DNA of 36,197 nt from an uncultured Methanosarcinales archaeon (GTDB lineage: Archaea; Nanobdellota; Nanobdellia; Woesearchaeales; GW2011-AR9). Made by a program: the position numbers and the translations under genes. Below the pieces are notes generated by a model that saw nothing but the letters and a program-made list of their open reading frames with translations, was not told the origin of the DNA and did not search any database. The DNA lies in NCBI GenBank assembly GCA_964360115.1, contig CAYHVV010000001.1:1-36197 (forward strand), written 5' to 3'. Positions 2,954 to 27,700 of this stretch are shown one piece after another (the stretch's first letter is position 1; every line of letters begins with the position of its first letter).

Positions 2954-3337
2954 CTACTTTTTGGATTTGCTGTGCTTCAGCCACTTCTCAGATAACTTGA
3001 AAATAACAAAAAAAATGGGCAATAATAATATGAAGTGTATGCCTAAAAACAAAAATACGAAGTCTTTAGGATAGCCTTCAAGAAAATATCTTACCTGCAA
3101 TAAAACACTGACACATAAAGAAACCAATAAAGACCTGGTGAATAATTTTTTATTTCTGAATAATAAATAAGCGGTATATCCAATCACAGTTCCATAGATG
3201 ATTTTATTGATGAAATAGCGCGAGGGAACAGCATACTCCGAGCTCAATCCATGTATCAAATAGTCAAATCCGGCAAAGATCAGCACTACTGCAAGAATTA
3301 CAAAAAACAAAATGGAATAATAATATGTTTTATTCAT
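2954..3337 (-). CDS. Integral membrane protein (4 TM), unknown; coupled to the cupredoxin gene
   Basis: Hydrophobic helices throughout. Its ATG overlaps the upstream gene's TGA (ATGA on the minus strand at 3334-3337). Confidence 0.55.
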   Translation of the reverse strand: MNKTYYYSILFFVILAVVLIFAGFDYLIHGLSSEYAVPSRYFINKIIYGTVIGYTAYLLFRNKKLFTRSLLVSLCVSVLLQVRYFLEGYPKDFVFLFLGIHFILLLPIFFVIFKLSEKWLKHSKSKK

Positions 3338-3708
3338 TCTACTACCACTTTACCTTTCATTGAAGGATGTATACCACAATGATAATCATAAGTGCCGGGT
3401 GTATTAAAAACATGTACATACGTATTTCCCTTTGAAATAGAATCAGAATTGATTTCATCTCCGGTATCAGAAACAATAGTATGCGGCGCAGAGTCCCTAT
3501 TTGTCCAAACAACACTTACTCCTTTAGATATAGTTAAAGTATTTGGATTAAAAGCGAAACCGTTTATCTCGATATCCATCTTAATTCCCAGATCTCCAGT
3601 AGATGGAGCAGCAGTTGGTTGTACTGGTGTTTTTTGCGCATAACAGCCGCTAACCGCTATAACTATTATCAAAAATCCAATAATAAATGTTTTTTTAATG
3701 TTAATCAT
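3334..3708 (-). CDS. Blue-copper (cupredoxin) lipoprotein
   Basis: Lipobox signal MINIKKTFIIGFLIIVIAVSGC. Copper ligands are HTIV ... YDYHCGIHPSMKGKVVV (His, Cys-x2-His-x2-Met). A GGAG RBS lies directly upstream. Confidence 0.8.
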   Translation of the reverse strand: MINIKKTFIIGFLIIVIAVSGCYAQKTPVQPTAAPSTGDLGIKMDIEINGFAFNPNTLTISKGVSVVWTNRDSAPHTIVSDTGDEINSDSISKGNTYVHVFNTPGTYDYHCGIHPSMKGKVVVE

Positions 3709-4448: not shown

Positions 4449-5117
4449 ATGGGGCTTCTGGAAACCGGATTTATGACTTTTATTGACATCATCCTACATC
4501 TTGATGTTTATCTTAAAGCGGTAATTGAAACCTATCATCTTTGGACTTATGCCCTTCTGTTTGTAGTAATTTTCTGTGAAACGGGCTTGATTTTTACCCC
4601 TTTCCTCCCGGGAGATTCTCTTCTCTTTGCTGCCGGAGCTTTTGCCGCGCTGGGATCGTTAAATATTTATTTGGTCTTTTTCATAATTTTAATTGCCGCA
4701 TCTTTGGGAGATTTAGTAAATTACACTGCCGGAAATTATATCGGGCCAAAAATATTCAAAAAAGATGATTCCTTGCTATTCAAAAAAAAATATTTAGTGC
4801 AAACAGAAAAATTTTATGAAAAGCATGGCTCAAAGACTATCATCGCTGCCCGGTTCATACCCATCATCAGGACCTTTGCTCCATTTATTGCCGGAATCGG
4901 AAAAATGAAAGTACTTCGGTTTATATTTTACAATATTACTGGAGCCTTGTTATGGTGCTCTTTCTTTATTTTCGGCGGATACTTTTTTGGTAATATTTCC
5001 TTTGTTAAGGAACATTTCAGCTGGGTAATCCTGGGTATAGTTGTATTATCTTTCCTTCCAGTAATAAAAGGAGTATTGCAAAGCTGGCTTAGGAGCAGAC
5101 AAAACAAAAATCAATGA
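4449..5117 (+). CDS. DedA-family membrane protein
   Basis: CETGLIFTPFLPGDSLLFAAGAFAA plus ARFIPIIRTFAPFIAG are DedA / SNARE-associated family signatures. Multiple TM helices. Confidence 0.85.
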   Translation: MGLLETGFMTFIDIILHLDVYLKAVIETYHLWTYALLFVVIFCETGLIFTPFLPGDSLLFAAGAFAALGSLNIYLVFFIILIAASLGDLVNYTAGNYIGPKIFKKDDSLLFKKKYLVQTEKFYEKHGSKTIIAARFIPIIRTFAPFIAGIGKMKVLRFIFYNITGALLWCSFFIFGGYFFGNISFVKEHFSWVILGIVVLSFLPVIKGVLQSWLRSRQNKNQ

Positions 5118-5229
5118 AAAAGTTTACTTCTTAGGAATTTACAAATCGTAAGATTAAATCAGTTTCAATTTCAACAGAAGAGGAATCAGAGATTGGAAAT
5201 TTTTATAAAGAACAACATATTCATTTTTA

Positions 5230-6468
5230 ATGATGAGAGGTAAAACATCACTGGTGTTGTTAGTAATTCTATTATTTGTAATAAGTTGTGCTCCTCAAGA
5301 ACTTTCCGATGAAGAACTGGAAAAAAAGTTAAGCAATTTATCTGATCAAGAACTTCAAGAGATTGTTAATCAAGGAAATGAAAAGGGAGCAATTGCCGGC
5401 CAAGCTTATTACAACGTAAAGTATGGGGCTTCTAATCAAAAAGTCTATAATTCAGCGAAGAATATTATGAATAAAAAGATTCCTAAATCGGAAGTTCCTT
5501 TGCCAGAAAAAATAATTAATTCTCCACCAGTTTTAAACTTCATAGGCAACAAACAAATCCAGAAAGGGGATTTATTGACTTTTACAGTTAGTGCAACTGA
5601 CGCTAATAATGATCCCTTAGTTTACAGTGCCCAAGTATTGCCTCTTGGTGCTAGTTTTGATGTAACCCTTCAGACTTTTAACTGGATTCCAGCTTACAAT
5701 CAGGTCGGTATTAATCCGATTACGTTTAAAGTAAGTGATGGGAAAAAAGAGGATGAAGAAACAATTAACATTACCGTTTTGGATTCTGTTGTTTTAAATT
5801 CTTGTGTGCCTAAACCAAATGGTTTAGTCGGCTGGTGGGATGGAGATAATGTTAGCGGAACGACTGCCTATGATTTGGTTGGAACACACCATGGAACTTT
5901 AGCTAATGGAGCTAAAATAGGTAAAGGTATGGTGGGAAATGCTTTTGATTTTAGTGGTAATAACGGCTATGTTGGTGTTGCGCATCATACAGACTTTAAT
6001 ATAGATTATAGCTGGTTTATTGATGCTTGGATAATGCCTTTATCATACCCTGCTCCCGGAAAAAGAGGAGCCATATTGATGAAATGGGTTGATGGTGGAG
6101 AAAACAAGGCCTTGGAGATTGGTTCTGATGGAAAAGTGTTTGTTACACTTGTAAATGTGCAAAAACAATCTGCTCAAGTATATTCAACTACTAATCTATT
6201 AATGAATCGGTTTACTTTCGTAGCTGCAAGTTATAATGGAACAGCTTTAAACTTATATATTAATGGTCAGCTTGATAACAGTCTTCCTTTATCAATAGAT
6301 GTTTCAGACTCTTATGGAACTTTTTATATGGGAAATCATCCAACAAGAGGTTCAGAATTTGTTCCTTTTGATGGCTTGATTGACGAAGTTGAATGGAGTA
6401 AAGAAGTTCCAACAGAACAGAAAATACTGGAATTATTTTCTTCTACTAGTAAAGGGAAATGTAAATAA
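5230..6468 (+). CDS. Secreted lipoprotein: cadherin/Ig-like domain + LamG (concanavalin-like lectin) domain
   Basis: Lipobox LLFVISC. Ig-like module PPVLNFIGNKQIQKGDLLTFTVSATDANNDPLVYS. LamG pattern LVGWWDGDN...GNAFDFSGNNGYV...LYINGQLD...FDGLIDEVEW. Confidence 0.7.
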   Translation: MMRGKTSLVLLVILLFVISCAPQELSDEELEKKLSNLSDQELQEIVNQGNEKGAIAGQAYYNVKYGASNQKVYNSAKNIMNKKIPKSEVPLPEKIINSPPVLNFIGNKQIQKGDLLTFTVSATDANNDPLVYSAQVLPLGASFDVTLQTFNWIPAYNQVGINPITFKVSDGKKEDEETINITVLDSVVLNSCVPKPNGLVGWWDGDNVSGTTAYDLVGTHHGTLANGAKIGKGMVGNAFDFSGNNGYVGVAHHTDFNIDYSWFIDAWIMPLSYPAPGKRGAILMKWVDGGENKALEIGSDGKVFVTLVNVQKQSAQVYSTTNLLMNRFTFVAASYNGTALNLYINGQLDNSLPLSIDVSDSYGTFYMGNHPTRGSEFVPFDGLIDEVEWSKEVPTEQKILELFSSTSKGKCK

Positions 6469-13708: not shown

Positions 13709-15133
13709 ATGTCAAAAAGAGGACAAGTAACGATTTTTATAATCATAGGTTTGCTAATCCTAATTATAACTGCAGGAATAATTTATGTTTCTAATACCAC
13801 AGTTACGGAAGAGCTTAAGATTGAAGAAACTAGCCCGTTTAAGGCAGACTTTTTTGTTTCTTTTGTAGACAACTGTTTAGAAAAAAGTGTCATTGATGGG
13901 ATGTACTTAGTTTTTTCACAGGGAGGTTATTATGAATTTACTCCGGAACCTGAACTGTTTGATCAGGTAGATGAACAAATAATTTCATTTCCCCCTAGTT
14001 TAGGAATTAATGTTTTTGCAGTAGAAGGTGAGAAAGAAGTAGAAAGTGAAAAAGAGGCTTTGCAAGTTCCAGTGTATTTCCAAAATACTAAAGCTAATCT
14101 GCCTGCCATTACTAGCATAGAAAGAGAAGTAGGAAAAGCTTCAAGAAGTTTTTTTCTTTCCTGCATAAATGGTTTTGAAAGTTTTAAAAAAGAAAATTAT
14201 AATATAGATGCCGGCAGCCCTGAGATTAAAGTTGCTTTTGCTGAAAAAATGTTAGTAGAGTTAAATTACCCCTTAAAAATAACTGGCGGCAGTAAAATCG
14301 CTGAACTTGAAACCTTTTCTACCGCCATTAACTTTAATTTTAAAGATAAATATGAAGTGATTAAAGAATATTTAAAAAAACAGGAAGAAGAACCAAATTA
14401 TTTTTTAATGGGTGAACTCTCTTCTTATGCTTATGAAAAAGATTTTGGTTTCGGATTTAAGCAGTTTGGCGATTCCGGAGCAGAAGTGTTAGTTGATTTT
14501 TCTTATGATGAAGAATTAAAACCGGAACCTCTGATTTACAGTTTCATTCTTTATTTTAATTGGACTGAACCAGTAGAGGAAGCCGAGTTATCTGGAGAAG
14601 AAGATGCAATCATCAATTTGGAAAGTATCCCTGCCTGGAACATCGATCAACCGGGCATTCATACTTACCAAGTGAAAGCTCTGGGAGAAGGTCTTACTTT
14701 CCATACTGATCCAAGAAGTCTGTCCATCGATCCTAAAACTGGACTAGTGACGATAGACACGAATGAATTCCCCAACGATGAATATTTATATTATGTTTTA
14801 GTTAGTGACCAATACGGACACGAAACTGTCGGGCCGATGTTCGTTAATGTAAATGTTAATGGCGGAACTTTGCCGATTATCAAGAAGATAGCCAAGCAGA
14901 CAGCAAAAATAGGAGAAGAATTTAATTATAAAATCGAAGTATTAAATGCCGGAAAAAACGTCGAGAATATTTTATCGTTCACTACTGATTCCTACTTGTT
15001 CGACCTGGATAAAAAAACGGGAGAGATCAAATTTATTCCTCAGCCAGAAGATAAAGGTCTTCATTCTGTCCGGGTAGATGTAGAGAACGAATTCGGGAAG
15101 ACTTGGCAGAGATGGGAATTGGAAATAAAATGA
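13709..15133 (+). CDS. Pilin-like (class III signal peptide) surface protein with C-terminal Ig-like domains, paralog of 17758-18774
   Basis: MSKRGQ|VTIFIIIGLLILIITAGIIYV has a short basic n-region, Gly-Gln, then a 20-aa hydrophobic stretch. The first 24 nt from the ATG are identical to those of 17758. Shared core FVDNCLEKSVIDGMYLVFSQGGYY. C-terminal Ig-like module LPIIKKIAKQTAKIGEEFNYKIEV. I prefer the ATG at 13709 over the track's TTG at 13706. Confidence 0.7.
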   Translation: MSKRGQVTIFIIIGLLILIITAGIIYVSNTTVTEELKIEETSPFKADFFVSFVDNCLEKSVIDGMYLVFSQGGYYEFTPEPELFDQVDEQIISFPPSLGINVFAVEGEKEVESEKEALQVPVYFQNTKANLPAITSIEREVGKASRSFFLSCINGFESFKKENYNIDAGSPEIKVAFAEKMLVELNYPLKITGGSKIAELETFSTAINFNFKDKYEVIKEYLKKQEEEPNYFLMGELSSYAYEKDFGFGFKQFGDSGAEVLVDFSYDEELKPEPLIYSFILYFNWTEPVEEAELSGEEDAIINLESIPAWNIDQPGIHTYQVKALGEGLTFHTDPRSLSIDPKTGLVTIDTNEFPNDEYLYYVLVSDQYGHETVGPMFVNVNVNGGTLPIIKKIAKQTAKIGEEFNYKIEVLNAGKNVENILSFTTDSYLFDLDKKTGEIKFIPQPEDKGLHSVRVDVENEFGKTWQRWELEIK

Positions 15134-17487
15134 TCAGCAGACAAAATAAACAAAATATTGGCACTAAAGATACCAAGATAAATTATTTTGTGTCTCTAAT
15201 GGTCTTGGTCTTAATGTGCACCTTTATTATTCTAGGTGTCTCCGCAGAAGATAATATCAATAATATTGATTGGAATAATCCGGAACAATTCAATGCTAAT
15301 TTTGAAAATGATCCCGTAGCTGCATTTTCTAACAATCCTGAAATGGTCTGGAACAAAATAGAAAATAATCCTCTCCTGCTTGCAGATAATGAACAAGTCA
15401 TGATCGCGGCATTCAACAATAATCAGGATAGGTTCTGGAGTCTTGTAAGTGTAAAAGGCAGCGATGTAATGAAAAACCAACCATTATGGGATTTCGCATT
15501 TAAGCAGGACCGGTTAAAAGCTGCAGGGGTAATAGAGAATAATCCGCACATCTTAGATGACTCTGTCCTTCTAGAAAAATTTGACTTAGAAATTTCTTCT
15601 CAGGAACTAAGAAACGGCAAAACCGGAGTAGAGATTATCAATGAAAATCCTAAAGCAAAGAAAACCTGGCTTGAAAAAAAATATGACTTGTTTACGGAAG
15701 ATATCATTGAAACAGGGGGAAAAATCAAGAACGCTGACATTCTCAAATACGATGGAAATAAAATCACTACCGGCGGCGCTGGCGGAGGAAAATTTACAGT
15801 TAAGGATGTCAAAGGAGCGAAAATCTTAACGGACGGTTCTTTGGAATTCAAAAATGCGGTAATCAAAGCTACCAAAAGTTTTTCTTTAAAAACAGATGAA
15901 TACGGAAATGATTATTATGGGATGGAAGCCGGAGAAGTTTATCTGGATGAGACGGTTAAGACATTCTCGTTAAAAATAAAAGATGGAAAAGTGTTCTCTT
16001 CAGGAAAAGGCTTGATAACTTATGATTGTTCTGATTGCGCTTTTGAAAAAGGGACAAGAATGGGCCAGTTTATCAAGTCAGAAGAGACTGGAGATCTGAT
16101 TACCGGTAAGTTTAAGCGCATAGGTCACTATCAGTTAGATTATACTTATCAAGCTGCAGTTGCCATGGAAGTAGATGGCGGAATATTTCAACAAGACGGT
16201 TCTAATCCGGAAGAGATGATCATTCTCGGAAAAACTAAATTGGTTAAGAAAGAAATAATTTTCGGCGATCCAAATAAAAATTATAAAACAACCCTGCCTG
16301 GAGACGGAACGATTATTAATATCGAAGGACCTAATACTGTTTATTATACCGAAAAAAAGAGCCGTGATGCTGCAACATTTTGTCCGAAAGATTTTGCTTG
16401 CATAGTTAATGTTCCCGGCCAGGAATACGGGGGAGCGTATCAGGAAAGATTAGCTTTCTTAAACGTGCAGGAAAATGATAAGATTTCTGTGAAAACTCCG
16501 GTTTATTATAATCGGGTTGAAGTTCTTGACCAAGTAGGCGGAGAAGTTACTTTTGCTTCCGTTAATAAAAGAAGCGGAACGGTCTTAGGAGAAATAAAAT
16601 CTGTTGCCGGAGAGAAACCAAAATTGGTTCGAGGCAGGCTGGAAGAAATAAAATCCGGAAGGTTTGATGTATTGGATAGTACGGATCCATATGAACCGCC
16701 GTTACTGCATCATTGGTCATCAAAAAAATTCCAGAAAGATCAGATTTATTTTATGAATAAGCGGGATCATTTTGCAACCTGCACTTACGGTGTTGATTGT
16801 GAAGAAGTGTTTGCAAAGGAATTCGGAAAAGTAATCGTACCAAAAGACAGAACTAAAAAGATTTCAACGACCATAATCGTTTCCGGCGATAACGCTAACA
16901 CTCCCTTAAGCATGTTAAGTTACTGCCAAAAAGAAGGGTGTTACATCGTCAACAGCAGAGATTCACCGCCGACAACTAAAAGCAGCAAGCTGGTTGTAAC
17001 CGGGCATCATAATGCCGGTTCTGATTATGTCTGGAGAGATCCTCCTGAAGTATTTAAAAAACATAACCCTATAGATAAACTTTACTTCAGCCCGGTTGAA
17101 GGAGGTTCACCTTTCGATTCGCTTCCTACGTCCAGCGCGGATGCGCAAAATCCGGTTGATTACGTTGCGTTCAGCGCCTGCAACACCGCAAACTCTTTTG
17201 ATTCACCAGATTTCGGGATTCTTCAGAAAAAATATCCTGACTTAAAAATCGTCCAGGGATGGAAAAATAAAGCGCCATTGCATGAAGCTATAAGTGATCT
17301 GCCTACAGGTATAGAAGAGATGGAAAAGCTGGCTCAGGGAAGCATAGTTAAAAACAAATACGGGGACAAAATAGGCGGTGAAAAATCTTGGTACATCAAA
17401 CAGGCCGATGGGACTTGGAAATGGACTAATGGCCGGGTAAATCCTCAACCCTTGGGTTCATCAAGTGAATTTTATGAAAATGTTTAG
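15130..17487 (+). CDS. Large secreted protein (785 aa): N-terminal region related to the giant protein, C-terminal caspase-fold-like module
   Basis: The ATG at 15130 overlaps the upstream TGA (ATGA), the same junction as at 18771. Signal peptide FVSLMVLVLMCTFIILGVSA|ED. The track's 15103 start would add 9 aa upstream of it. Confidence 0.7.
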   Translation: MISRQNKQNIGTKDTKINYFVSLMVLVLMCTFIILGVSAEDNINNIDWNNPEQFNANFENDPVAAFSNNPEMVWNKIENNPLLLADNEQVMIAAFNNNQDRFWSLVSVKGSDVMKNQPLWDFAFKQDRLKAAGVIENNPHILDDSVLLEKFDLEISSQELRNGKTGVEIINENPKAKKTWLEKKYDLFTEDIIETGGKIKNADILKYDGNKITTGGAGGGKFTVKDVKGAKILTDGSLEFKNAVIKATKSFSLKTDEYGNDYYGMEAGEVYLDETVKTFSLKIKDGKVFSSGKGLITYDCSDCAFEKGTRMGQFIKSEETGDLITGKFKRIGHYQLDYTYQAAVAMEVDGGIFQQDGSNPEEMIILGKTKLVKKEIIFGDPNKNYKTTLPGDGTIINIEGPNTVYYTEKKSRDAATFCPKDFACIVNVPGQEYGGAYQERLAFLNVQENDKISVKTPVYYNRVEVLDQVGGEVTFASVNKRSGTVLGEIKSVAGEKPKLVRGRLEEIKSGRFDVLDSTDPYEPPLLHHWSSKKFQKDQIYFMNKRDHFATCTYGVDCEEVFAKEFGKVIVPKDRTKKISTTIIVSGDNANTPLSMLSYCQKEGCYIVNSRDSPPTTKSSKLVVTGHHNAGSDYVWRDPPEVFKKHNPIDKLYFSPVEGGSPFDSLPTSSADAQNPVDYVAFSACNTANSFDSPDFGILQKKYPDLKIVQGWKNKAPLHEAISDLPTGIEEMEKLAQGSIVKNKYGDKIGGEKSWYIKQADGTWKWTNGRVNPQPLGSSSEFYENV
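16850..17300 (+). other. Candidate clan-CD (caspase/CHAT/CPD-like) cysteine protease module
   Basis: KLVVTGHHNAG (His codons at 17005-17010) is followed 58 residues later by DYVAFSACNTAN (Cys codon at 17179-17181). The His-then-Cys order, hydrophobic strands before each residue and small residues after each match the caspase-hemoglobinase fold pattern. Confidence 0.4.
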
Positions 17488-17498
17488 GAAGAGATTTA

Positions 17499-17532
17499 TA
17501 GAGAAGTTTGAATAATTCATAAAACTTCTCTA
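17499..17532 (+). terminator. Perfect 11-bp hairpin after the 785-aa gene (possible terminator or processing site)
   Basis: tagagaagttt (17499-17509) pairs with aaacttctcta (17522-17532) across a 12-nt loop. No strong T-run follows. Confidence 0.35.
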
Positions 17533-17654
17533 AGAGACTGTGAAATGGCGGAATTTTCCCCTTAAATAAAATTTACTATTATCAAAAATTCCTTTTTTCA
17601 AAGTTCTCTATGGATAAATTCTTAGATTAGATCAGGCCAAAATGGGGTTAACCC

Positions 17655-17734
17655 TCGGGTCGTTCGTTCAGACCCTGACTATTCCCTTGACATTTTCTCC
17701 GCTTCTTAACCAGCAAAATAGTCAGATTTAAATA
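17655..17734 (+). promoter_or_regulatory. PAR copy 3, with its TATA box 23 nt upstream of the ATG of the giant-gene operon
   Basis: ctcgggtcgttcgttcagaccctgactattcccttgacattttctccgcttcttaaccagcaaaatagtcagatttaaata. Inverted repeat 17675-17683 / 17717-17725. There is no SD before the ATG at 17758, suggesting a leaderless transcript. Confidence 0.75.
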
Positions 17735-17757
17735 CATTTTAATCTTATTTCCTTCTG

Positions 17758-18774
17758 ATGTCAAAAAGAGGACAAGTAACAATCTTTTTAGTAGTGGGTA
17801 TAGTCATTTTACTCTTAGCAGCGTTGTTCTTTTACCTCTTCGGCCAGATGAAAGAAGCGCCGTTGCAAGTGGAAGCAAAGGAAACCGGAGAAGCGCCCAG
17901 TACGCGAGGAGCTTTACAAATATATGTTGAAAATTGTATCGAAAAAACCATTGATCCAGCAACATATTTACTAGCACTGCAGGGCGGGATAATTTATCCG
18001 GATGAAAGTAACAAAATTCTGCTAACTGATTATGGCGTTGTTAATTATGCCTGGTTGAATGGTGCGCAAGGAATTTCCCGCGCTAAAATGGAAGAAGATC
18101 TTGCAGCATATTTGGAAGAATATATTCCTTCGTGTTTAGGTAATTTTGAAACATTTGTCACTCAAAACATTTTAGTTGAATCGGATTTTAATAATGTTCA
18201 AGCAAAGATTTCTATTAAGGAAAATACCATCAATGCAAACTTAGATCTGCCGCTTAAAGTAAATCTAGCTGATGGAGATAAATTGGAATTAGATCATTTT
18301 TCAGCAATGGTGCGTAGCAGCTTAGGTAAAATGCTTACTTCTATTGAAAAATTAAAGTTTCCAATTATAACCCCTTCCGATTTGGTTAACCTTCCGTACC
18401 AATCAACGATATTCCCCTTTGATGAAGCAGTTACCATTTACTCACTAACTGAAGAGAATCAAGAAACTCCGTTATCATTTATGTTTGCAGTTCGTAATGA
18501 TCTTCCCGAGAATAAAGCTCCTTCATTGCATTATATTGCTGACAAGACTTTTCGCGTAGGAGACGTATGGAAAGAAGTATTGACTGCAGAAGACCCTACC
18601 AATGACTTGTTAGAATTTTCTTCTGATTCCAGTTTATTTCCCATTCAAAAAGATGGAACCATTGACGTACAGATAACTCAAGCAGGAGAATTTGAAGTTA
18701 CTTTTAGCGTTAATGATCATCAGGCCGGGGAAGATGAACAACTAGTTACAGTTACAGTGGTGAATAAAGAATGA
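17758..18774 (+). CDS. Pilin-like (class III signal peptide) surface protein, paralog of 13709-15133
   Basis: MSKRGQ|VTIFLVVGIVILLLAALFFYL. Shared core YVENCIEKTIDPATYLLALQGGIIY. C-terminal Ig-like module APSLHYIADKTFRVGDVWKEVLTAEDPTNDLLEFSSDS. Confidence 0.7.
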   Translation: MSKRGQVTIFLVVGIVILLLAALFFYLFGQMKEAPLQVEAKETGEAPSTRGALQIYVENCIEKTIDPATYLLALQGGIIYPDESNKILLTDYGVVNYAWLNGAQGISRAKMEEDLAAYLEEYIPSCLGNFETFVTQNILVESDFNNVQAKISIKENTINANLDLPLKVNLADGDKLELDHFSAMVRSSLGKMLTSIEKLKFPIITPSDLVNLPYQSTIFPFDEAVTIYSLTEENQETPLSFMFAVRNDLPENKAPSLHYIADKTFRVGDVWKEVLTAEDPTNDLLEFSSDSSLFPIQKDGTIDVQITQAGEFEVTFSVNDHQAGEDEQLVTVTVVNKE

Positions 18775-21700
18775 AACCAGTAACTAGAAAAACTATTGTT
18801 ATGGGGTGTGTTTTTCTCTTCCTAGCGAGTCTTTTTGCTGTTGCCCAGGAGTTTCCAGAAACGAATAACCCGCAGGGGCAATCTCCTTATGATCAATTTT
18901 CCAGCAATCCGAATTTATGGACCACGGATAATTTCAATAAGCTCAGTCCAGCAGATCAAGGACAATTTTTAGCAACTAATTACCGCGCAGATTTGGCGCT
19001 GGAATATTACAAAAATCAAAATAACGTCGGCTTGAATAAGATAGTAGATTTAAAATATTTTGCGGATAAAAATAACTTAGGGAAAAATCCAGCTGCTGAT
19101 GATAAATTTTATTCGAGCACTTATACCACTGCAACGCTGACGAGCTTGCGTGATTTCCTGCAGACAGGACTGGAACAGAAAGAGGCTGCTGCACAATATT
19201 TCACTCAAAAGTTCAATACTCCTTATACCTTTGAAGAAGTAGATGAAGATTTTCAATATGATGCTCAAGCAGGAACATTGACCAATGGTAAGAAAACTAT
19301 CAGTTTAAGTGAGTTCAAAGGTGATTCAGCTATCCAAGGGATTATTTCTATCGCAGACGGGTTTAAAATTATCCGGAAAGAAGAACAAGAAACACAGGAA
19401 ATTTCCGTGCAGGGTGATGGAGAGAGAAAAATTCAATATGATGCCCAGAAAGGAAATTTATTATTCAGAGACACACAGGGAAAAGAACAAAGCTTTGATA
19501 TCACTGCTGCAGAACCAGTTCATCTCGATTTTTATCAGGATGGAACTTTAGAGATAGAAGGGCCTGTTTCGGGAACAGTTAATCTTGATAACGAACATAA
19601 GTTCGCAGAATTCAGAAACAGACAGGGAAAATTAGTTATCTATTTCAACGGCGACTTTGAATCAAGAGATGCATTAATAAAAACAGCAAAACTCTACCTC
19701 AATGGACGATTTGAATATAATAAAGAAAAAAACAAAGTAGATGCTTACGATGTGATGAGCAATGATAGAAAAACTATCATTGTTGACAAAGATTCACGCG
19801 TAGGTGCAAAGACACAGGGACAGATTAAAGGAAAAAGTACTTTAGAGATATATCTTTCTAAAGTTTCCGAACACTCAGAATATTTTGTCAAACCTGGTGC
19901 AGCTGAAGAACAGCCGACCGTACAAGAAGTCATTGACAACTTACAGAAGGTTAGACCACCACAAGGAGACGTTGGAAATAACGCAGAAGTATTCATCAGG
20001 AAAAATGCTGAAACTGGAAAAACAATTATTACTTCAAAAGGAAAAGTAGAGATTGGTTTTTATGATGTTGTGAGCGGAAGCATTTCGCGTTCTGAAACTG
20101 AGCCGCACTTTATAGGTGTAAACGGAATTTCTGAGTTTGATTATTTAGGTGCGCCACAGAAACAAATAAACATTCGAGGAAAAGCAGTGTACTCGGATGA
20201 ACAGTACAGCCAGATTGATACACAACAAAATGGCGCTTCTCTCAAGATAATAAAGAATGATTTTGATGATGTTATCCATTCAGGATGTTTTGATTGTGAA
20301 ACTGGATCAACTGCGCTAAGCATAGGCAAACAAGTTGCGACGGCATTACAACAAGGAGATACGTTTACTGAACCTCAGTTTAAAACAATTAGCATCTCTG
20401 CAACAGTTAAAGATAAAGGCCTCGAATATGATTGGGATACGTTTCTTAACAATATGGGTTCTCTTGCAGGCTCAAAAACAGAGGGACAACAAATAATTTT
20501 AGGAAAAAATTTACTATTGAAAAGTATAACCTGTGAAGGTACAAAACAGTGTGATTTCATGCTGGCCAGAGATCAGCAATCAGGAGTAACTTCTGCTTTT
20601 TATGAAGTATACGACCCAGAGACAAATAAAGCAGGTAGAAGAGTTACTATTCCAACTAATATCGGTGAAACCATGGGTAAAGTGACCCTACTCACTTCTA
20701 CTGAGAATTTACAAAAACTACAACAGATTCAAACCTTAATTGAACAACGAAGATATGGGGAAGTTTCAAATTTATTAAAAAATGAACCGTTTGAAGAAGA
20801 TCCTGCTTTGCGCCAGCATCTTCTGAAAACTACGGGAATTGATCTACAACAATTAAATAATCCAGAATACACTCAAAAGCTCAATGAGATAAATAATTAT
20901 TATTCTGATGCACACACAAAAATAAAGACATTACGGGATAGTTATGGAATTAATCTAGATGAAAAAGGTGTGCCTGTATCGACAGAAGATCAGCAAAAAC
21001 TGAACGAAATCTTAAACAAAAAACGCAGTGGGAATGAAATAGCCGCATTTGACTTATACAGCGGAGCAAGAGTTGATTTAGCCCGAGCAGAGAATGAGCA
21101 AGTAGAAGCAATGCATCAATCCTGCGCTGGAAATGCGTATTGCCCCGTAGGAGATGAAGATGTCAAAGCCGCTCAGCAGAAAGTAATTAATGAAGTTCTA
21201 AGAAGAGAAAAATCTCCAGAGGGAATCCAATGGCGGCAAAACTTCGAACTGCAGAAGGAACAAAAAGAACAGCAGAAAGAAGTAGAACTATTAGCCGATA
21301 AATTAGCTGATGCTCAGAAATTAGGTAAAAAAAGAGATGCTACTGAACGTACCTTGACACGTGATCAAGCAGTTCTTGCTAAAACTATTCAAGATCTAAA
21401 TGAGCAGGAAGCAAAAGTACTGAGACTTGAACAAGAACGGAAAGAGAAGGAAAAAAGTATTCAGTTCAGAGATGTTTTGAATGTTGTATTTACGCTAGGC
21501 GAAGGAATTGAACAAGATTTAGATTTGCAGAGAAGTGCTGAAGAATTAGCAAAGAAAGAACTTACCACGCTGGAACTACAGGAATTTAGTTTACAAACTA
21601 GGATTAAAAACGGAAAGGAAGGCCTTAAAAAAATAAATGAAGATATCAACGATCTCACTCTCAATTTCAAAGAACCCACCTCTAAATTAGCATTATTAAG

Positions 21701-24700
21701 CGCCTCTGGCGATGATGAAACCGTCGGCATGATGATACATAATTCTGACTTGCCTTCGGCTAAGAAGGATGAATTATACCAAACTTACCTTGGTTCTGAT
21801 GTAAGCAAGCGCCTTAAAGAAATTAGCGCGGATCAGTCTGTTTCGAATTATGACGAAAAACAAAAACAAATGCTTGACATTATCGGCACCGGAAAAATGA
21901 CACTTAAACGAGCGCAAAATTATGCTGAGCAATACGGTGATATCGGCGGATCAAAAGTAGTTTTAGATCATGTTAAAGCTACTAGACCTGATTTGGTTGA
22001 TACACCAGAATGGAGAACGGCGCAAAATGCTTATGATGCGGCAGTCGATAACCAAATAGCAGAGTTACGACAGGTTGCAGAACAAAATCTTCGGGAAAAA
22101 ATGAAACTCAGTGATGGAACAGAGTCCAGCATTTTTGGTGATAAAAATTCTATTGCTGATTGGACTTTATCTAAGTTGGGTGCCGCGGCTGAAAGCGTGG
22201 GTTCAGGAATACGTTCTGCGAGTTTTAATGCTGTTGCCGGAACACTCGCAGTCGCGGGAGGAGCTTCTTATTTAGTCGGCGCGGAAGAAACAGGAACCAA
22301 TTTATTAGATACAGCGACGGCATTGCATACTTTTGATGATGTGAAGAAGCAGCAAGCAAATGCAGAATTAAGATTACTGGATCAGCAAATAAAATCCTAC
22401 GACAAAGTGCAGGAAATAATTGCAAATGCTCGTCTAAGTGGGAAAGAACCAGATACTGCACTTATCCAGAATGCATTTAGAACCCAAGCACCAATTACTA
22501 ATTTAGCAAAACAAATGGAAGGAAAGGAATTAACGGTAGATGACCAAGCGCAAGCAGCATTGTATAATGTTGAACAATCCGCATTGGTTGCTGGCGGAGA
22601 TGAATTAGTAAAGAATCAATATATCGCCATTCGAGAAGAGTTTGCTGGTAAAAGCGAGGTTGCAGATATAGCAAAAGAAAGAGTACTTAAAGCGGAACAA
22701 CGTGCAGAAGGTTCCTTCTTAACTAACGAACAACTTGGCCTTTATGGAGATGCGTTGATTGATGTTTCTGTTGATGTAACAAATATCATTCCCGGGGTTG
22801 TTTTTGTCAAAGCCGGCAAAGCAGTTGCAAAGTTTGCTGAAGTTACTAAGATTGCTGGAGCTGCCTCTAAAATAGGTCATGCGATAGATGTTGTTAAAGA
22901 TGCAGGTAAATTATTAACTGTATCAAAAGATGCGCGATTGGCTTTGAAAGCAGCAAAGGCAGAATTGTATGCGGCGCAAGTAACTAAAGGGTTAACTGCT
23001 GTAGAAAGAACTGCAGAGATTGCTCGAGCAGAACAGAAAATAAACTTGGCTAGGCAAGCTGTTGAAGGAGAATATCGTGCCAGTAAGGTTGGTCGAGTAA
23101 CAAATGTATTATCTACGCCTGTCTCTTCTGATCTTAGAGCCATAGAAAAATTAAAGTTGGCGACTCAAGATGAACAGTTCAAAGCGGCGCAACAGTTACA
23201 GGCCGCCAGAACAGCAGAAGAAGTGCAAACCGCTCAGGAGGCATATAAAGTTGCTACACAAAGAGTCAGTGATATTGAAAAAACAAAAGAAGCATATTCT
23301 TTAGCGGGTTCATATACAGGTGGTGTAACTTGGTTAGGAAAAGAACGCGCCGTTGGTCCTGGTGCAAAGAAAGCACAACAAGCTCTTGATGAATTTCAGC
23401 AAGCCAGAGAAGCGTATCATGTAGAAAAGATTGCTTTTGGCGCAGATAAAGTATCAGCTGAAACTGTCGAGAATATTATCAAGACTGCAAAAGCAGCAGA
23501 AGAGGCATCATTTGAGAACAGGCTTTCCAATACCATTAAGGGCGCAATCGGTGCGCAGCGAGTTGAAAGAAATGTAGAAAAACTCAAAGCAGCTAAAGTT
23601 GGACTTTCATTTACTGATGATGGTAAACTTGTTGCAGAAGGGTTACAAACCGGCTCTGAAGAAGCCAAATTGGTTGAACAAACTAATAAATTGCTGGATG
23701 AAGATACGGTCATGCGGCATCTTGTTGGCGAAGATGCTAAACGTATCGCAACTCCAGAAGATATCCCGCAACCGCCGCGGAAATTATCCGAACAAGAATT
23801 TGATGAGTTAGATTTACTTGACAAAGAACTTGAAGCGCGAGGAGCTACCTATCATCTTAATGATCAAGACCAAGTAGAGATAAGTATTAATGATGTTGTA
23901 ACTGAAAATGTTGAAGATTTAGAATTATTAAAACAAAAAGCGCAGAGAGCACAACAATTATTTGATGAGGCCGATAAGGAAGATTTGATCAGGCAAACAC
24001 GAGCAAGGATAAATGCAGAAAATGTACTTTCTGATAATGATTTACAGGATGTTGCTGCTCAAGTAAAGAAAGATCTAACTGCTAAAACAAAAGGAGAAGT
24101 TGACGCTGCAGTTATCCCAGAAGTTGCTGGTGAAAAAGCTGCAGAACTGCCTAAACCTCTTGCTGCTAGAGAAACTAGAATAGCAACAGGTGATGATATC
24201 CCGAGACCGGAAGCGATTGAAGAAGCAATTGATTCCAGAACAGCAGGAACCTATTCCATACTCAAGACAGTTCAGCAAGAAGGAAAAGCGCCAACAGTTC
24301 GCGGGTTAGACCATCTCCCAGCGGATATAACTGCAGAAGAAAACGCTCAGCGAGTCTTGGCAAGTGTACCTGAATCAGGCACTACTGTGAGATTAGAAAC
24401 TCTCAATGGTAATATCGAAGAAGGCAAAGTTCTTGCAGCAAATGATAATGGCATAGTCTTAGAGCAAGCAGGAAGACAAAAAACTATTCCCGCTGATAAA
24501 GTAGATACAGTCACGGTTACTGAAAAAGCACCGATAGAAAAGCAAGGAGTTTCTGATGTGGTCGAACCCTGCACTCTCGCTGCCGCTGCGATATACGGAT
24601 TGGCTCCCTGTAATCCTAGTGAAGCTACTAAACTGCCTGCAGAAATTTCCGGCGAGAGAGAAATTGCAGAAAAAGCACCTTCCGTTTCTGAAGAAGAGCA

Positions 24701-27700
24701 ATTTGTACCCGAAGTATCCACCGTCGTAGAAAGACCAGCAAATCTGCGAAGTGAAGGAGCAACTGTCGTTCAACTTCCTGGACGTTCTATAGCAGCAGAG
24801 TCTGTTGAAGTTCCAGCTCAATTAGATATAACTCCTGCCACTATAGATGATATAGACATAATTGTTAATGATCAGATACCACGTACAAAATTAGCTGAGA
24901 GTGAAGCAGCAGCCCTGACTGCAAATAGAGAATATTTTATCGGTCGGGGTGGAGAAGCAATAGTAATAACTGATCCAGAAAATCCAAATTTTGTATATAA
25001 AATAAAACACACCACTAGTCCTGAAGTTGCAGAAACAGCAAATTCTTTCCCTGATGCTAGAACATATTTAGATGCTCTTGGTGAGCATGGCGCAAAAGTA
25101 GATTGGGCAAATACTAATACTATGCGCATCGAGAATTTAAAAGCTTCTGGACACCAACAATTAGGAGACGCGATATTTAACAGCTTGTCACCGGAACAAA
25201 GAGCATTGTATGTAGCGGATGGAACTACTGCTGCGCAAAGACGGATTTTACGAGAACAAGCATTTAGACAAATGACTGAGGAAGAATTTCAAGCGTTTAA
25301 TCAGGCCTTTGATGAGTTTGCTGAAACAGCAACCAAACAGGGAATAAAAATTGGCGATACAGGAATAGATAATATTTGGGTAGGACCGGAAGGATTTACC
25401 GACGGAGTAAAGTTTAAAATTTCTGATGCTGGGGTTGCTCATCAAGTTACTGATCGCAATGCTCTGCGGCAATTTTATCAGCGCAGGAAAGCAGAATTAA
25501 TATCTGGTGACTCTGGCTATTTAGTCACGGGCGAAGATGCGATAGATCTGTATGAAGCTCGCGGATTAATCACTAAAGAAGAAGTGATTAAACTACGTAA
25601 TGAATTACCTGTTCCGGAAACGTTGCTTAAAGAAGTTGAAGAGATAGAATTGCCTTCTTGTTCTATCGGCGGTTCTTTTGTCGGACAAGCTGCAGCAGCG
25701 CCTTGTTTGCCAACTGGCGCGCCAAAAACAATAGATGATTTAGTTGAAGGAGAAAAATTCAGAGTGCGTTCAAAAAGCGGCAATTCCTATGCCGGCAGTT
25801 ATCTTCATACTGAAGGGGGTTTATTAAATTTCGAAACTGGAGAGGAGACAAAAAGATTCTTTGGATTACTGGGCACTAAAAAAGAAACAGGCACGTTGCG
25901 TGTTGAGCTGTTAGATCAAAGCAGTATTATCCGAGAAGGCGATCAAATAAGGATAACTTCCAATAGCGGTATTCCTTACGTCGGCAGATATGCCGGTGAA
26001 GATGCAGAATTCTTCCGGATTAAGTATCCAAATGGAGACACTCTGCGTTTTAAAAAATCTGACTTTAATCTGGATACTATCATCGGAGAAGGAGACGCAG
26101 TCACGCTCAGGAGCAAAAGCGGCAATAGTTATTCCGGACAGTATGTTTCGGAAGCTGACGGATACATCGTTCTCAGAGACGAAAGTGGAAATGCTTTCCG
26201 CTTGAGAAGCGAGATGGTGGATAAAACTTCCATCAAGACACTTGGAATGGAAGAACAATCCATCAAAAATAAAAATAAAGCTTTATTTGCAGATAAGGAA
26301 GAATTTCCTTCACGCCAAAGTAAAGATGTACATGCAAAAGATTTACCTTTTGAAAATGAACCTGCCCCGCGTAGAGTAATATATTCTCTTGAAGACAGGA
26401 TAATAGCAGAAGAACAAGGCCTTATTTTTGAAAATGTACCCTCTTCTAAACTTCCGCCAGGAACCTACACTTATGTTATATTAGAAGACGGGTCAATGGT
26501 GTTTGGAAAAGTAAGCAGTAATTTGGAATTTGGAGTTAAGCATGTCCATCTGGCTAACGGAAGGCCGGTCAAAGTTGCCGGAGAAGTAGCAATTGACGGA
26601 ACTGGAAAATATGTGTTTAATTTACGCAGCGGAACTTTTACTTACCCCCTACTTGACAGTAAATTTGAAAAGTTTAAACATCTGGGAAATGTGAAGGCAC
26701 GGGAAGAAGTTGCTAAATTTGAAAGAACACTGCAAAGAAATATGGACGAGTCTTTCAGTAATTATTTTGGCAGGAAAGGAGAGTTCACAAAAGATCCGGT
26801 TTTACCTAATCAGCCCTCACCGCTGGAAGAATTAGTAAACATTTGCGTAAGAGGCGCAGAGCTTAATATTCTCTCCTGCCAAGCTCCAGATATAAAAGTT
26901 TTAGTTGAGCAGAGAAGAGCAGCGATGGTTTCAGATGCAGTCAATCCTTGCAACATTGCTGCTGCTGCGATTCAGGGATTAGCTCCTTGTGTAACTAGTA
27001 CGGCTGAAATAATGCCTGAGGAACCTGCATTCGTAATTGAAACATCTGGTGTTGTAGAAAGGCCAGTAGAACTTCGTAATGAATTGCCTCTAACCGAAGA
27101 GGTAGTTCCTTCTTCAGAAAAGATTATTTCTGAATGGAGAATGAAAGCAAGAGAAGCACTTAATTCTCAAACGCCAATTGAAATCGGTGAAACTAAAGTT
27201 GTTTTTACTAGAACAGTTGATGACGAAGTTGAAAAGATTGAAGGAGTTCTAACCGCGAAGTATGATGCTAATAATTATTTTTCAATGCAGATAGTCGATT
27301 CTGAAACAGGAGATATTGTTGCTACTCACTACTACCATGTTCGTGGAAAAGAAATTTCAATATTAGAAACGAAGGTTAATCCTAACTATCAAGGAGCAGG
27401 AATGAATCAACAGATGTTCCAGTATATGTCTGATTTACATCCAGAAGCGGAAGTTATGGATACGCTAGTAGCCGGAACTAATTTAGAGGTGTATAAAGCA
27501 TCATTGCAGAAGGGATTAAGTCCTCTTGATGCAATAAAACAAACTCCTGCTTACAAAATAAGAAAAAATGCCGGTTGGGGAGAAATTGATCTTAAACAGT
27601 CAGTACTGCCCAAGTTAGAAGAACTCGAAGAAAGATCGCTTACTTTGATTTCTAAGAGGGAAAATCCGACGGGTGTTCTTCCTCCAGAATTTAAACGCAA

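Follow-up and report, generated by a model that had tools for sequence, protein, structure and literature searches.

A secreted archaeal protein with a candidate clan CD cysteine peptidase domain encoded beside a conserved pilin-like gene

The window, by which we mean the whole 36,197-nucleotide stretch of DNA analyzed, carries a gene for a 785-aa secreted protein (P0001) whose C-terminal domain drew attention because of a His/Cys motif pair. The features of this gene and of its neighbors are as follows.

13709-15133, + strand: upstream partner gene, encoding a 474-aa pilin-like protein with an archaeal class III signal (MSKRGQ/VTIF)
15130-17487, + strand: open reading frame of the 785-aa secreted protein, from translation of 15103-17487 with the start ATG at 15130
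15130-15246, + strand: predicted Sec signal peptide (residues 1-39), by reading of the sequence
15247-16674, + strand: N-terminal region (residues 40-515), kept through the family in alignment A5
16675-17484, + strand: C-terminal domain (residues 516-785), modeled with AlphaFold2
16867-17352, + strand: alpha/beta core of that domain (residues 580-741), from DSSP of the AlphaFold2 model
17005-17010, + strand: His626-His627 of the GHH motif, candidate general base, directly past strand b3
17179-17181, + strand: Cys684 of the SACNT motif, candidate nucleophile, directly past strand b4
17386-17433, + strand: C-terminal beta-hairpin motif SWYIKQADGTWKWTNG (residues 753-768), conserved family-wide
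17758-18774, + strand: second pilin-like gene (338 aa), overlapping the start of the giant gene
18771-30290, + strand: gene for a giant secreted protein of 3839 aa, a lineage-specific neighbor

The 785-aa protein, which has orthologs at 86%, 73% and 38% identity, is predicted to begin with a Sec signal peptide made up of a basic n-region, the hydrophobic FVSLMVLVLMCTFIILGV and VSA ahead of the likely cleavage point, with Ala39 invariant among the close homologs (alignment A1). The N-terminal region that follows is helical and N/P-rich in its first part and beta-rich in its second, where it carries the Cys pairs 300/303 and 418/424, and it retrieved no match in Pfam, NCBIfam or the PDB. The SWYIKQADGTWKWTNG hairpin near the C-terminus bears weak resemblances to Choline_bind_1 and WWE-like motifs and is present six times in P0059. 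Scans of the window for tRNAs and Rfam families came back empty.

Translation of the 15130-17487 frame places both His/Cys motifs in the C-terminal domain, KLVVTGHHNAG at nt 16987-17019 and DYVAFSACNTAN at nt 17158-17193, with His626/His627 and Cys684 separated by 57-58 residues, in agreement with the 58 residues given in the first-pass annotation of this DNA. The span named there for the module, 16850-17300, does cover the core of the domain, but the domain as a whole comprises residues 516-785 (nt 16675-17484). Since a His/Cys spacing is meaningless by chance alone, its significance rests on conservation. All four close homologs (alignment A1) retain GHH and the Cys, which are also invariant or nearly so over 34-41 diverse family members, and in the full set of 56 representatives, where both are essentially invariant, GHH is altered only to one GDH, one GHF and one AHH; the conservation of His and Cys on which the original proposal depended was thus borne out. 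Cys684 is also the sole unpaired Cys beyond the signal peptide, the others forming four close pairs (300/303, 418/424, 551/557 and 599/604), as is expected of disulfides in a secreted protein. Across the family, the His-to-Cys spacing ranges from 33 to 84 residues, most members have Ala before the Cys (S-A-C), and the His stands between a Gly and a second His, giving G-H-H and no H-G. Conserved acidic residues lie near the His and Cys (SRD, WRD and PID), those behind the His being in WRD/YGE, with SRD not kept in the distant branch.

The family of the C-terminal domain has 56 representatives among 1.84 billion proteins, nearly all of them proteins of 680-810 aa with the domain at the C-terminus. 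Few members carry a source name, and all those that do are listed as 'hypothetical protein' of Woesearchaeota or Nanoarchaeota. Searches of the protein, domain and family profiles against Pfam, NCBIfam and PDB sequences returned no match. At E values up to 1, neither the window protein nor 34 domain sequences matched the Pfam families CHAT (PF12770), C14, C80, C11, C13 or C25, ten distant family members gave no CHAT match at E up to 0.1, and a word-indexed search with the core profile A4 yielded a single match, an already-known member.

We generated an AlphaFold2 model of residues 516-785, which is predicted as an alpha/beta fold (pLDDT 91.1, pTM 0.90). DSSP assigned its core elements as b1 (580-584), a1 (590-602), b2 (604-608) and b3 (620-624) in the first half and b4 (678-682), a4 (693-701), b5 (707-713), a5 (728-734) and b6 (737-741) in the second, in the order b1-a1-b2-b3-His...b4-Cys-a4-b5-a5-b6. 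The domain is trimmed, with a loop in place of helix a2 and a beta-hairpin inserted between the His and the Cys. A firmly homologous, less trimmed family member, P0058, was modeled with AlphaFold2 as well (pLDDT 88.5) and compared by Foldseek. The two models agree in placing the His right behind the hydrophobic strand b3 and the Cys right behind the hydrophobic strand b4.

When searched against the PDB, the window's own model produced no significant match. Its list of 50 matches contains no clan CD structure, and the best alpha/beta entries there are flavodoxins with TM 0.34-0.38. In contrast, the P0058 model retrieved the SAVED-CHAT structure 8tl0 with an E value of 4.4e-5, a probability of 1.00 and TMq 0.49-0.52, followed by Csx29 (8eex, probability 0.89), DdvA (8rot, probability 0.85) and separase (5mz6, probability 0.47, TMq 0.44), and seven clan CD chains have the top TMq among the 50 matches listed. 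The branches of P0058 and of the window protein were joined by hhalign with a probability of 99.7% (E 8.7e-27), with GHH and SACNT aligned. The assignment of the window's domain to the clan CD fold class is supported by the fold together with this transitive homology through P0058. The idea of a clan CD-type (caspase/CHAT/separase-like) module, with the His after strand 3 and the Cys after strand 4, thus gains support from a homolog that matches CHAT proteases. A more specific kinship with MARTX/C80 or caspase C14 peptidases, which had also been suggested, is not supported: neither model has such a structure in its list of 50 matches, and there is no Pfam clan CD match. Our verdict on the domain family is that it consists of previously unannotated, divergent, extracellular, putative CHAT-like proteases.

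The gene neighborhood was compared across ten family loci. The upstream pilin-like partner, whose product has weak Ig-like matches at its C-terminus, is orthologous in all ten, and its stop overlaps the ATG of the 785-aa open reading frame by 4 nt (ATGA), an arrangement found in six loci (the window, L001, L003, L007, L009 and L012). A giant gene lies near the family gene in only three of the ten (the window, L001/L002 and L003, at least 73% identity), and no giant gene is present in the available DNA of the other seven (L004, L005, L006, L007/8, L009/10, L011 and L012). The second pilin-like gene, a distant paralog of the first, is found only where the giant gene occurs, and L005 preserves the gene order of the window without either of these two. 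The constant genomic partner is therefore the upstream pilin-like gene, not the giant gene. Directly 3' of the family gene, six of the ten loci have a convergent YkuD gene, which is absent at the window, L001, L004 and L005; the spacer at 17488-17757 in the window holds no YkuD remnant.

We consider it probable that residues 516-785 form an extracellular clan CD cysteine peptidase domain, with a fold nearest to the CHAT/separase type, encoded beside a pilin-like partner. The likely catalytic dyad would be His626 (or His627) with Cys684, at the C-terminal ends of b3 and b4, which we take to be adjacent and parallel, an arrangement shared with caspases and CHAT domains; we infer this geometry, and with it the superposition of the dyad. 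The peptidase domain would end a Sec-secreted protein with about 500 further residues, from a gene that is translationally coupled to the type IV pilin-like gene, and this coupling suggests that the two products probably cooperate on the surface of the tiny symbiotic archaeon (DPANN, Woesearchaeota-type) that encodes them. The most likely job would be limited proteolysis of proteins on the surface or on the partner cell, or else a transpeptidation-type reaction on them, and the most obvious candidate partner or substrate would be the co-encoded pilin-like protein. Counting against this explanation are the lack of a significant PDB match for the window model, the lack of Pfam clan CD and PDB sequence matches, and G-H-H in place of the usual H-G. 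DPANN archaea have an attached lifestyle on other cells, and to our knowledge almost nothing is established about their surface enzymes. The family, exported and encoded at every locus with a pilin-like protein, is a candidate for proteolytic remodeling at the symbiont-host interface, and with it the CHAT branch of the caspase clan would come to include proteins secreted by archaea.

A different kind of chemistry, which we regard as unlikely, would make the domain a non-proteolytic Cys/His enzyme (a transpeptidase, ligase or amidase) that acts on envelope peptides of the archaeon or of its partner cell, together with the often adjacent YkuD L,D-transpeptidase. Clan CD does include transamidases and ligases, such as GPI8, legumain-type ligases and PorU, every product of the locus is exported, and the convergent YkuD gene lies directly downstream in six of the ten loci. 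However, the absence of YkuD at the window, L001, L004 and L005 means that the link to YkuD is not obligatory, the closest structures are endopeptidases, and we know of no envelope polymer in these archaea.

The giant protein encoded downstream has a signal peptide and is modular, with modules shuffled between orthologs and five conserved Cys-bounded hydrophobic loops between modules (residues 1934-1947, 2297-2312, 2727-2740, 3056-3069 and 3618-3634). The domain had originally been proposed as a dedicated, trans-acting protease that cuts this giant at its Cys-bounded loops or linkers, in the manner of the CPD in MARTX toxins. The fold class would suit such a role, both proteins, having signal peptides, would encounter each other in the extracellular space, the giant offers modules and loops to separate, and the genes lie close together in the window, L001/L002 and L003. 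Nevertheless, we find this role quite unlikely, as only the three closest relatives (at least 73% identity) have the giant next door and seven other loci show none in the available DNA, including L005 with its otherwise matching gene order, while the pilin-like gene is the constant partner. A search of the giant for the His/Cys domain found no copy, whereas the CPD of MARTX and TcdB acts in cis, and neither model has a C80-type structure in its list of 50 matches. The accompanying claim of paralogy between the 785-aa protein and the giant is not supported: BLASTP between the two aligned 109 aa of non-equivalent regions at E 3e-4, which is not significant, and hhalign of the family profile against the first 800 residues of the giant gave no match. 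As the gene neighborhoods offer no support for a dedicated tie to the giant, a MARTX-style annotation would be premature.

It is very unlikely, in our view, that the His-His/Cys/Asp residues form a structural or catalytic metal site or that the domain is a non-catalytic binding module whose CHAT likeness reflects a generic flavodoxin-like sandwich. The weak matches of the window model to flavodoxin-like folds alone, the difference between GHH and the clan CD H-G signature, and the conserved acidic residues near by (SRD, WRD and PID) would all fit such a module. On the other hand, four independent clan CD structures, in seven chains, have the top TMq among the 50 matches listed for P0058 at probabilities of 0.47-1.00, the positions of the His and Cys, at the ends of b3 and b4, match the clan CD layout exactly, the invariant Cys has no pairing partner while every other Cys has one, and SRD is not kept in the distant branch. 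Other candidates were rejected outright: a sortase (His...Cys...Arg, beta-barrel) by the alpha/beta model, in which strands alternate with helices, and by the lack of a conserved Arg past the Cys; a YkuD-type L,D-transpeptidase by the wrong HG...SxGC spacing and fold, the true YkuD genes being separate neighbors; the 'GHH' HNH/EndoVII toxin family by the lack of a Pfam match and of a beta-beta-alpha element past GHH; a PTP/rhodanese C-x5-R loop by Phe at +6 from the Cys; and an alpha/beta hydrolase, class I glutamine amidotransferase or DJ-1 by the nucleophile preceding the His in those folds.

A bolder scenario, to us a long shot, would have the CHAT-like protease and the pilin-like protein, joined in most lineages by YkuD, form a new DPANN surface apparatus, with the protease of the window's lineage maturing the giant at its Cys-bounded loops. 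If true, kinase-like, acetyltransferase-like and HopA1-like effector modules would be freed onto or into the partner cell, and these archaea would have an equivalent of MARTX autoprocessing that acts in trans.

Among known systems, caspases, metacaspases and orthocaspases (C14) share with the domain the caspase-hemoglobinase topology, with the His past b3 and the Cys past b4. However, the family has no Pfam C14 match and no sign of a p20/p10 organization, and neither model has a caspase in its list of 50 matches although the PDB holds hundreds of caspase structures. The CPD of MARTX and TcdA/TcdB (C80) is likewise of clan CD with the His before the Cys, the C-N behind the putative catalytic Cys of the family is reminiscent of C80, and the cutting of a modular giant exported protein would be the analogous task. 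In contrast to the present family, the CPD is part of its own toxin and works in cis once InsP6 has bound in the cytosol of a eukaryote; the domain described here resides on a protein other than the giant, which carries no copy of it, and the family occurs without a giant neighbor. Neither model lists a C80 structure among its 50 matches, and there is no Pfam match. Separase (C50, 5MZ6) has the identical His-Cys order and a weak fold match (probability 0.47, TMq 0.44), but it is eukaryotic and cytoplasmic, is about 1000-2000 aa long, has its dyad residues 26 positions apart (H2003/C2029) and shows no sequence similarity.

CHAT proteases (PF12770; 8TL0, 8EEX and 8ROT) differ from the family in giving no PF12770 sequence match, in having H-G where the family has G-H-H, and in their TPR or SAVED sensor domains and ties to CRISPR or CBASS defense, none of which the family has; the window's branch additionally has no helix a2 and has a hairpin insert, and the family protein is archaeal and Sec-secreted, with a 475-aa N-terminal region and a C-terminal W-rich hairpin. 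The likeness lies in the alpha/beta fold class of P0058 (E 4.4e-5, probability 1.00, TMq about 0.5), in a His ahead of a Cys with each behind a hydrophobic strand, and in dyad spacings of 42-47 residues (H375/C422, H585/C627 and H862/C907) that are bracketed by the 33-84 of the family, whose S-A-C-x-T resembles the CHAT Cys motif. DdvA, a CHAT protein, is extracytoplasmic and is also without helices conserved in other CHAT domains, which indicates that a CHAT domain can be both.

The C-terminal domain of the 785-aa protein (residues 516-785) is, on the best-supported reading, a putative exported clan CD (CHAT/separase-like) cysteine peptidase, in which Cys684 would be the nucleophile and either His626 or His627 the general base. 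The window has a low G+C content (33-42% in 2-kb windows); archease and ribosomal protein L15e, both encoded in it, are archaeal markers. Both motifs that the first-pass annotation had claimed are present in the protein, with the candidate dyad residues spaced 57-58 residues apart:

15130-17487, + strand, ORF of the 785-aa protein, from translation of the window
16987-17019, + strand, KLVVTGHHNAG motif in this ORF
17158-17193, + strand, DYVAFSACNTAN motif in this ORF, containing Cys684

Reading of the sequence gives the protein an N-terminal Sec-type signal with a basic n-region, a hydrophobic core, and VSA. The mature protein has eight cysteines in four close pairs (300/303, 418/424, 551/557, and 599/604), leaving Cys684 as the sole unpaired cysteine past the signal peptide, consistent with an exported, disulfide-bonded protein that keeps one thiol free for catalysis. 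The protein ends with a W-Y-x-K-x-x-D-G-x-W-x-W-T hairpin motif (17386-17433), similar strings of which form six repeats in the protein P0059; otherwise it weakly resembles only choline-binding repeats and the RNF146 (WWE-domain) chains 1ujr and 4qpl.

A word-indexed search retrieved only three homologs of the protein, at identities of 86%, 73%, and 38%, one of which carries the name 'hypothetical protein, Nanoarchaeota archaeon'; none of the three departs from GHH or SACNT. An exhaustive HMM search of 1.84 billion representatives with a profile of the C-terminal domain retrieved 56 proteins with E of 1e-3 or below, 45 of them with E of 1e-10 or below. Almost every one measures 680-810 aa and carries the domain at its C-terminal end; those with a name are 'hypothetical protein, Candidatus Woesearchaeota archaeon'. 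No Pfam or NCBIfam model matched any family member, and no PDB sequence matched the family profiles. Conservation of the His and Cys in homologs, which the first-pass annotation had made a point to check, is clear, as invariance across 34-41 diverse members is essentially confined to G-H-H, one Pro, the Cys, and one Gly, with single exceptions to GHH (one GDH, one GHF, and one AHH). Across 41 full-length members, His626 never varies and His627 hardly does. Between 33 and 84 residues separate the His from the Cys, a range that reflects the variable segment in between. About 10 positions past the His pair, an acidic residue is kept in both branches of the family (WRD, YGE, or YGD); speculatively, it might hint at a preference for basic P1 residues, like that of separase or metacaspases.

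An AlphaFold2 model of residues 516-785, built on an alignment of 34 sequences (pLDDT 91.1, pTM 0.90), runs b1 (580-584), a1, b2 (604-608), b3 (620-624), and His626/627, followed by a beta-hairpin insert, b4 (678-682), Cys684, a4, b5 (707-713), a5, b6, and a terminal hairpin. Active sites of alpha/beta enzymes lie at the C-terminal ends of parallel strands, and it is there that the model gathers conserved polar residues (SRD after b2, GHH after b3, and CN after b4). Foldseek found no significant match for this model in the PDB; flavodoxins led the alpha/beta matches (TM 0.34-0.38), and the 50 matches listed included no clan CD entry. We also modelled residues 41-242 of P0058, a distant, shorter member that retains helix a2 between b2 and b3 (pLDDT 88.5, pTM 0.89). 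In Foldseek, four chains of SAVED-CHAT 8tl0 matched this model over 192-210 aligned columns with a probability of 1.00 (TMq 0.49-0.52, E 4.4e-5 to 3e-4). Csx29/TPR-CHAT 8eex matched with a probability of 0.89 (TMq 0.45, E 0.019), the anti-sigma factor DdvA 8rot, which contains a CHAT domain, with 0.85 (TMq 0.50, E 0.054), and separase 5mz6 with 0.47 (TMq 0.44, E 0.2). Among the 50 matches listed, the highest TMq values are those of these clan CD structures. By profile comparison, the P0058 and window branches are firmly homologous (hhalign E 8.7e-27, probability 99.7%): GHH falls on GHH, and SACNT on S(A/S)C(N/T)T. The assignment to clan CD thus extends to the window domain, bearing out the caspase-type fold predicted in the first pass. 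How close the His and Cys lie to each other, and that the pair superposes on known dyads, we infer from the models.

We compared ten distinct loci with family members (the window, L001/L002, L003, L004, L005, L006, L007/8, L009/10, L011, and L012). In all ten, the gene directly upstream of the protease gene is an ortholog of the window gene at 13709-15133 (BLASTP E 1e-28 to 0), whose product starts with an archaeal class III, pilin-type signal (MSKRGQ/VTIF, or MQKRGQ/ITIF or KKGQ/VTEF in other loci). Its stop codon overlaps the protease start (ATGA) in the window, L001, L003, L007, L009, and L012, which suggests co-translation; the peptidase would thus probably act at the cell surface, alongside the pilin-like protein. 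A second window gene, at 17758-18774, likewise begins MSKRGQVTIF; the two products are distantly paralogous, sharing 25% identity along about 210 aa, and each gene directly precedes and overlaps one for a large secreted protein. Just downstream of the protease gene, six of the ten loci carry a convergent YkuD (L,D-transpeptidase) gene, each with a signal or lipobox-like N-terminus:

L003 6998-7759, convergent to the protease gene, YkuD-type
L006 12269-13048, convergent, YkuD-type
L007 4411-5157 (locus L007/8), convergent, YkuD-type
L009 12052-12711 (locus L009/10), convergent, YkuD-type
L011 2583-3221, convergent, YkuD-type
L012 5515-6321, convergent, YkuD-type

This linkage would suit a transpeptidase or amidase acting on envelope peptides, a reading we consider unlikely; no YkuD gene was found in the window. 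In the 270-nt spacer at window 17488-17757, a position held by YkuD in L003 and by a nucleotidyltransferase pair in L001, scans for a YkuD remnant, a tRNA, or an Rfam family found nothing. For wall-less DPANN archaea, an L,D-transpeptidase is puzzling.

The first-pass annotation had proposed the 3839-aa giant protein (18771-30290, + strand) as a paralog and substrate of the 785-aa protein. That the domain serves as its dedicated processing protease is quite unlikely: the giant gene and the second pilin-like gene before it adjoin the protease gene in just three loci, the window, L001/L002, and L003, whose family members share at least 73% identity. L005 retains the gene order of the window (L15e, pilin-like, protease, 248-aa lipoprotein-like, and PLD-like genes) and lacks this pair, which suggests lineage-specific insertion, or loss from L005. 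Paralogy also found no support, as the BLASTP match (E 3e-4), which covers 109 residues in regions that do not correspond, is not significant, and hhalign of the family against the first 800 residues of the giant protein gave no match. The giant protein contains no copy of the His/Cys domain.

The giant protein's architecture resembles polymorphic or modular effectors. Five Cys-bounded hydrophobic loops (e.g., PCTLAAAAIYGLAPC; residues 1934-1947, 2297-2312, 2727-2740, 3056-3069, and 3618-3634) part its C-terminal modules. The L001 and L003 orthologs conserve these loops, with the modules that follow them shuffled (residues 2700-2967 of the window copy match 1916-2217 of the L001 protein). The modules (window 24612-29621; L001 11715-18953) contain glycine-rich kinase-like motifs (GRGGEAIV...K and GEGTVGIVYEA) and a weak GNAT match (Acetyltransf_CG, E 0.029). 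Precomputed annotation gives the L001 ortholog a match to the Pfam effector family HopA1 (PF17914); Pfam gave no significant match for the window copy. Strings resembling the W-rich hairpin, GKKYYRAADGNWKQQRSFWFDK and GKEYYLENGVWKQKRSFWFDK, occur at residues about 2990-3004 and about 3560-3600. At window 31043-31762, a 239-aa protein without a Pfam match (start MSKRGKK...LLSC, lipobox-like; Cys-rich N-terminal part) closely resembles by eye, at both termini, the 248-aa product encoded directly after the L005 protease gene (4645-5391).

That the His/Cys site is a metal site, or the domain a non-catalytic module, is likewise quite unlikely. Published catalytic dyads fit the family's His/Cys pair: H375/C422 in SAVED-CHAT (bioRxiv 10.1101/2023.06.23.546230), H585/C627 in TPR-CHAT and H2003/C2029 in separase (PMC9729208), and H862/C907 in DdvA (PMC11506125). 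The CHAT domain of DdvA is periplasmic and lacks three helices of other CHAT domains (PMC11506125), so there is precedent for one that is both trimmed and extracytoplasmic. By sequence, the window domain matches none of PF12770, C14, and C80. As a predicted clan CD peptidase, it is like the CHAT proteases in modelled fold and predicted working, but differs in its G-H-H motif, the loss of helix a2, and the gain of a hairpin insert, while the whole protein differs in its Sec export, N-terminal region of unknown kind, C-terminal W-rich hairpin, and archaeal, pilin-linked gene context. We class it as a new, divergent family inside the known clan CD.
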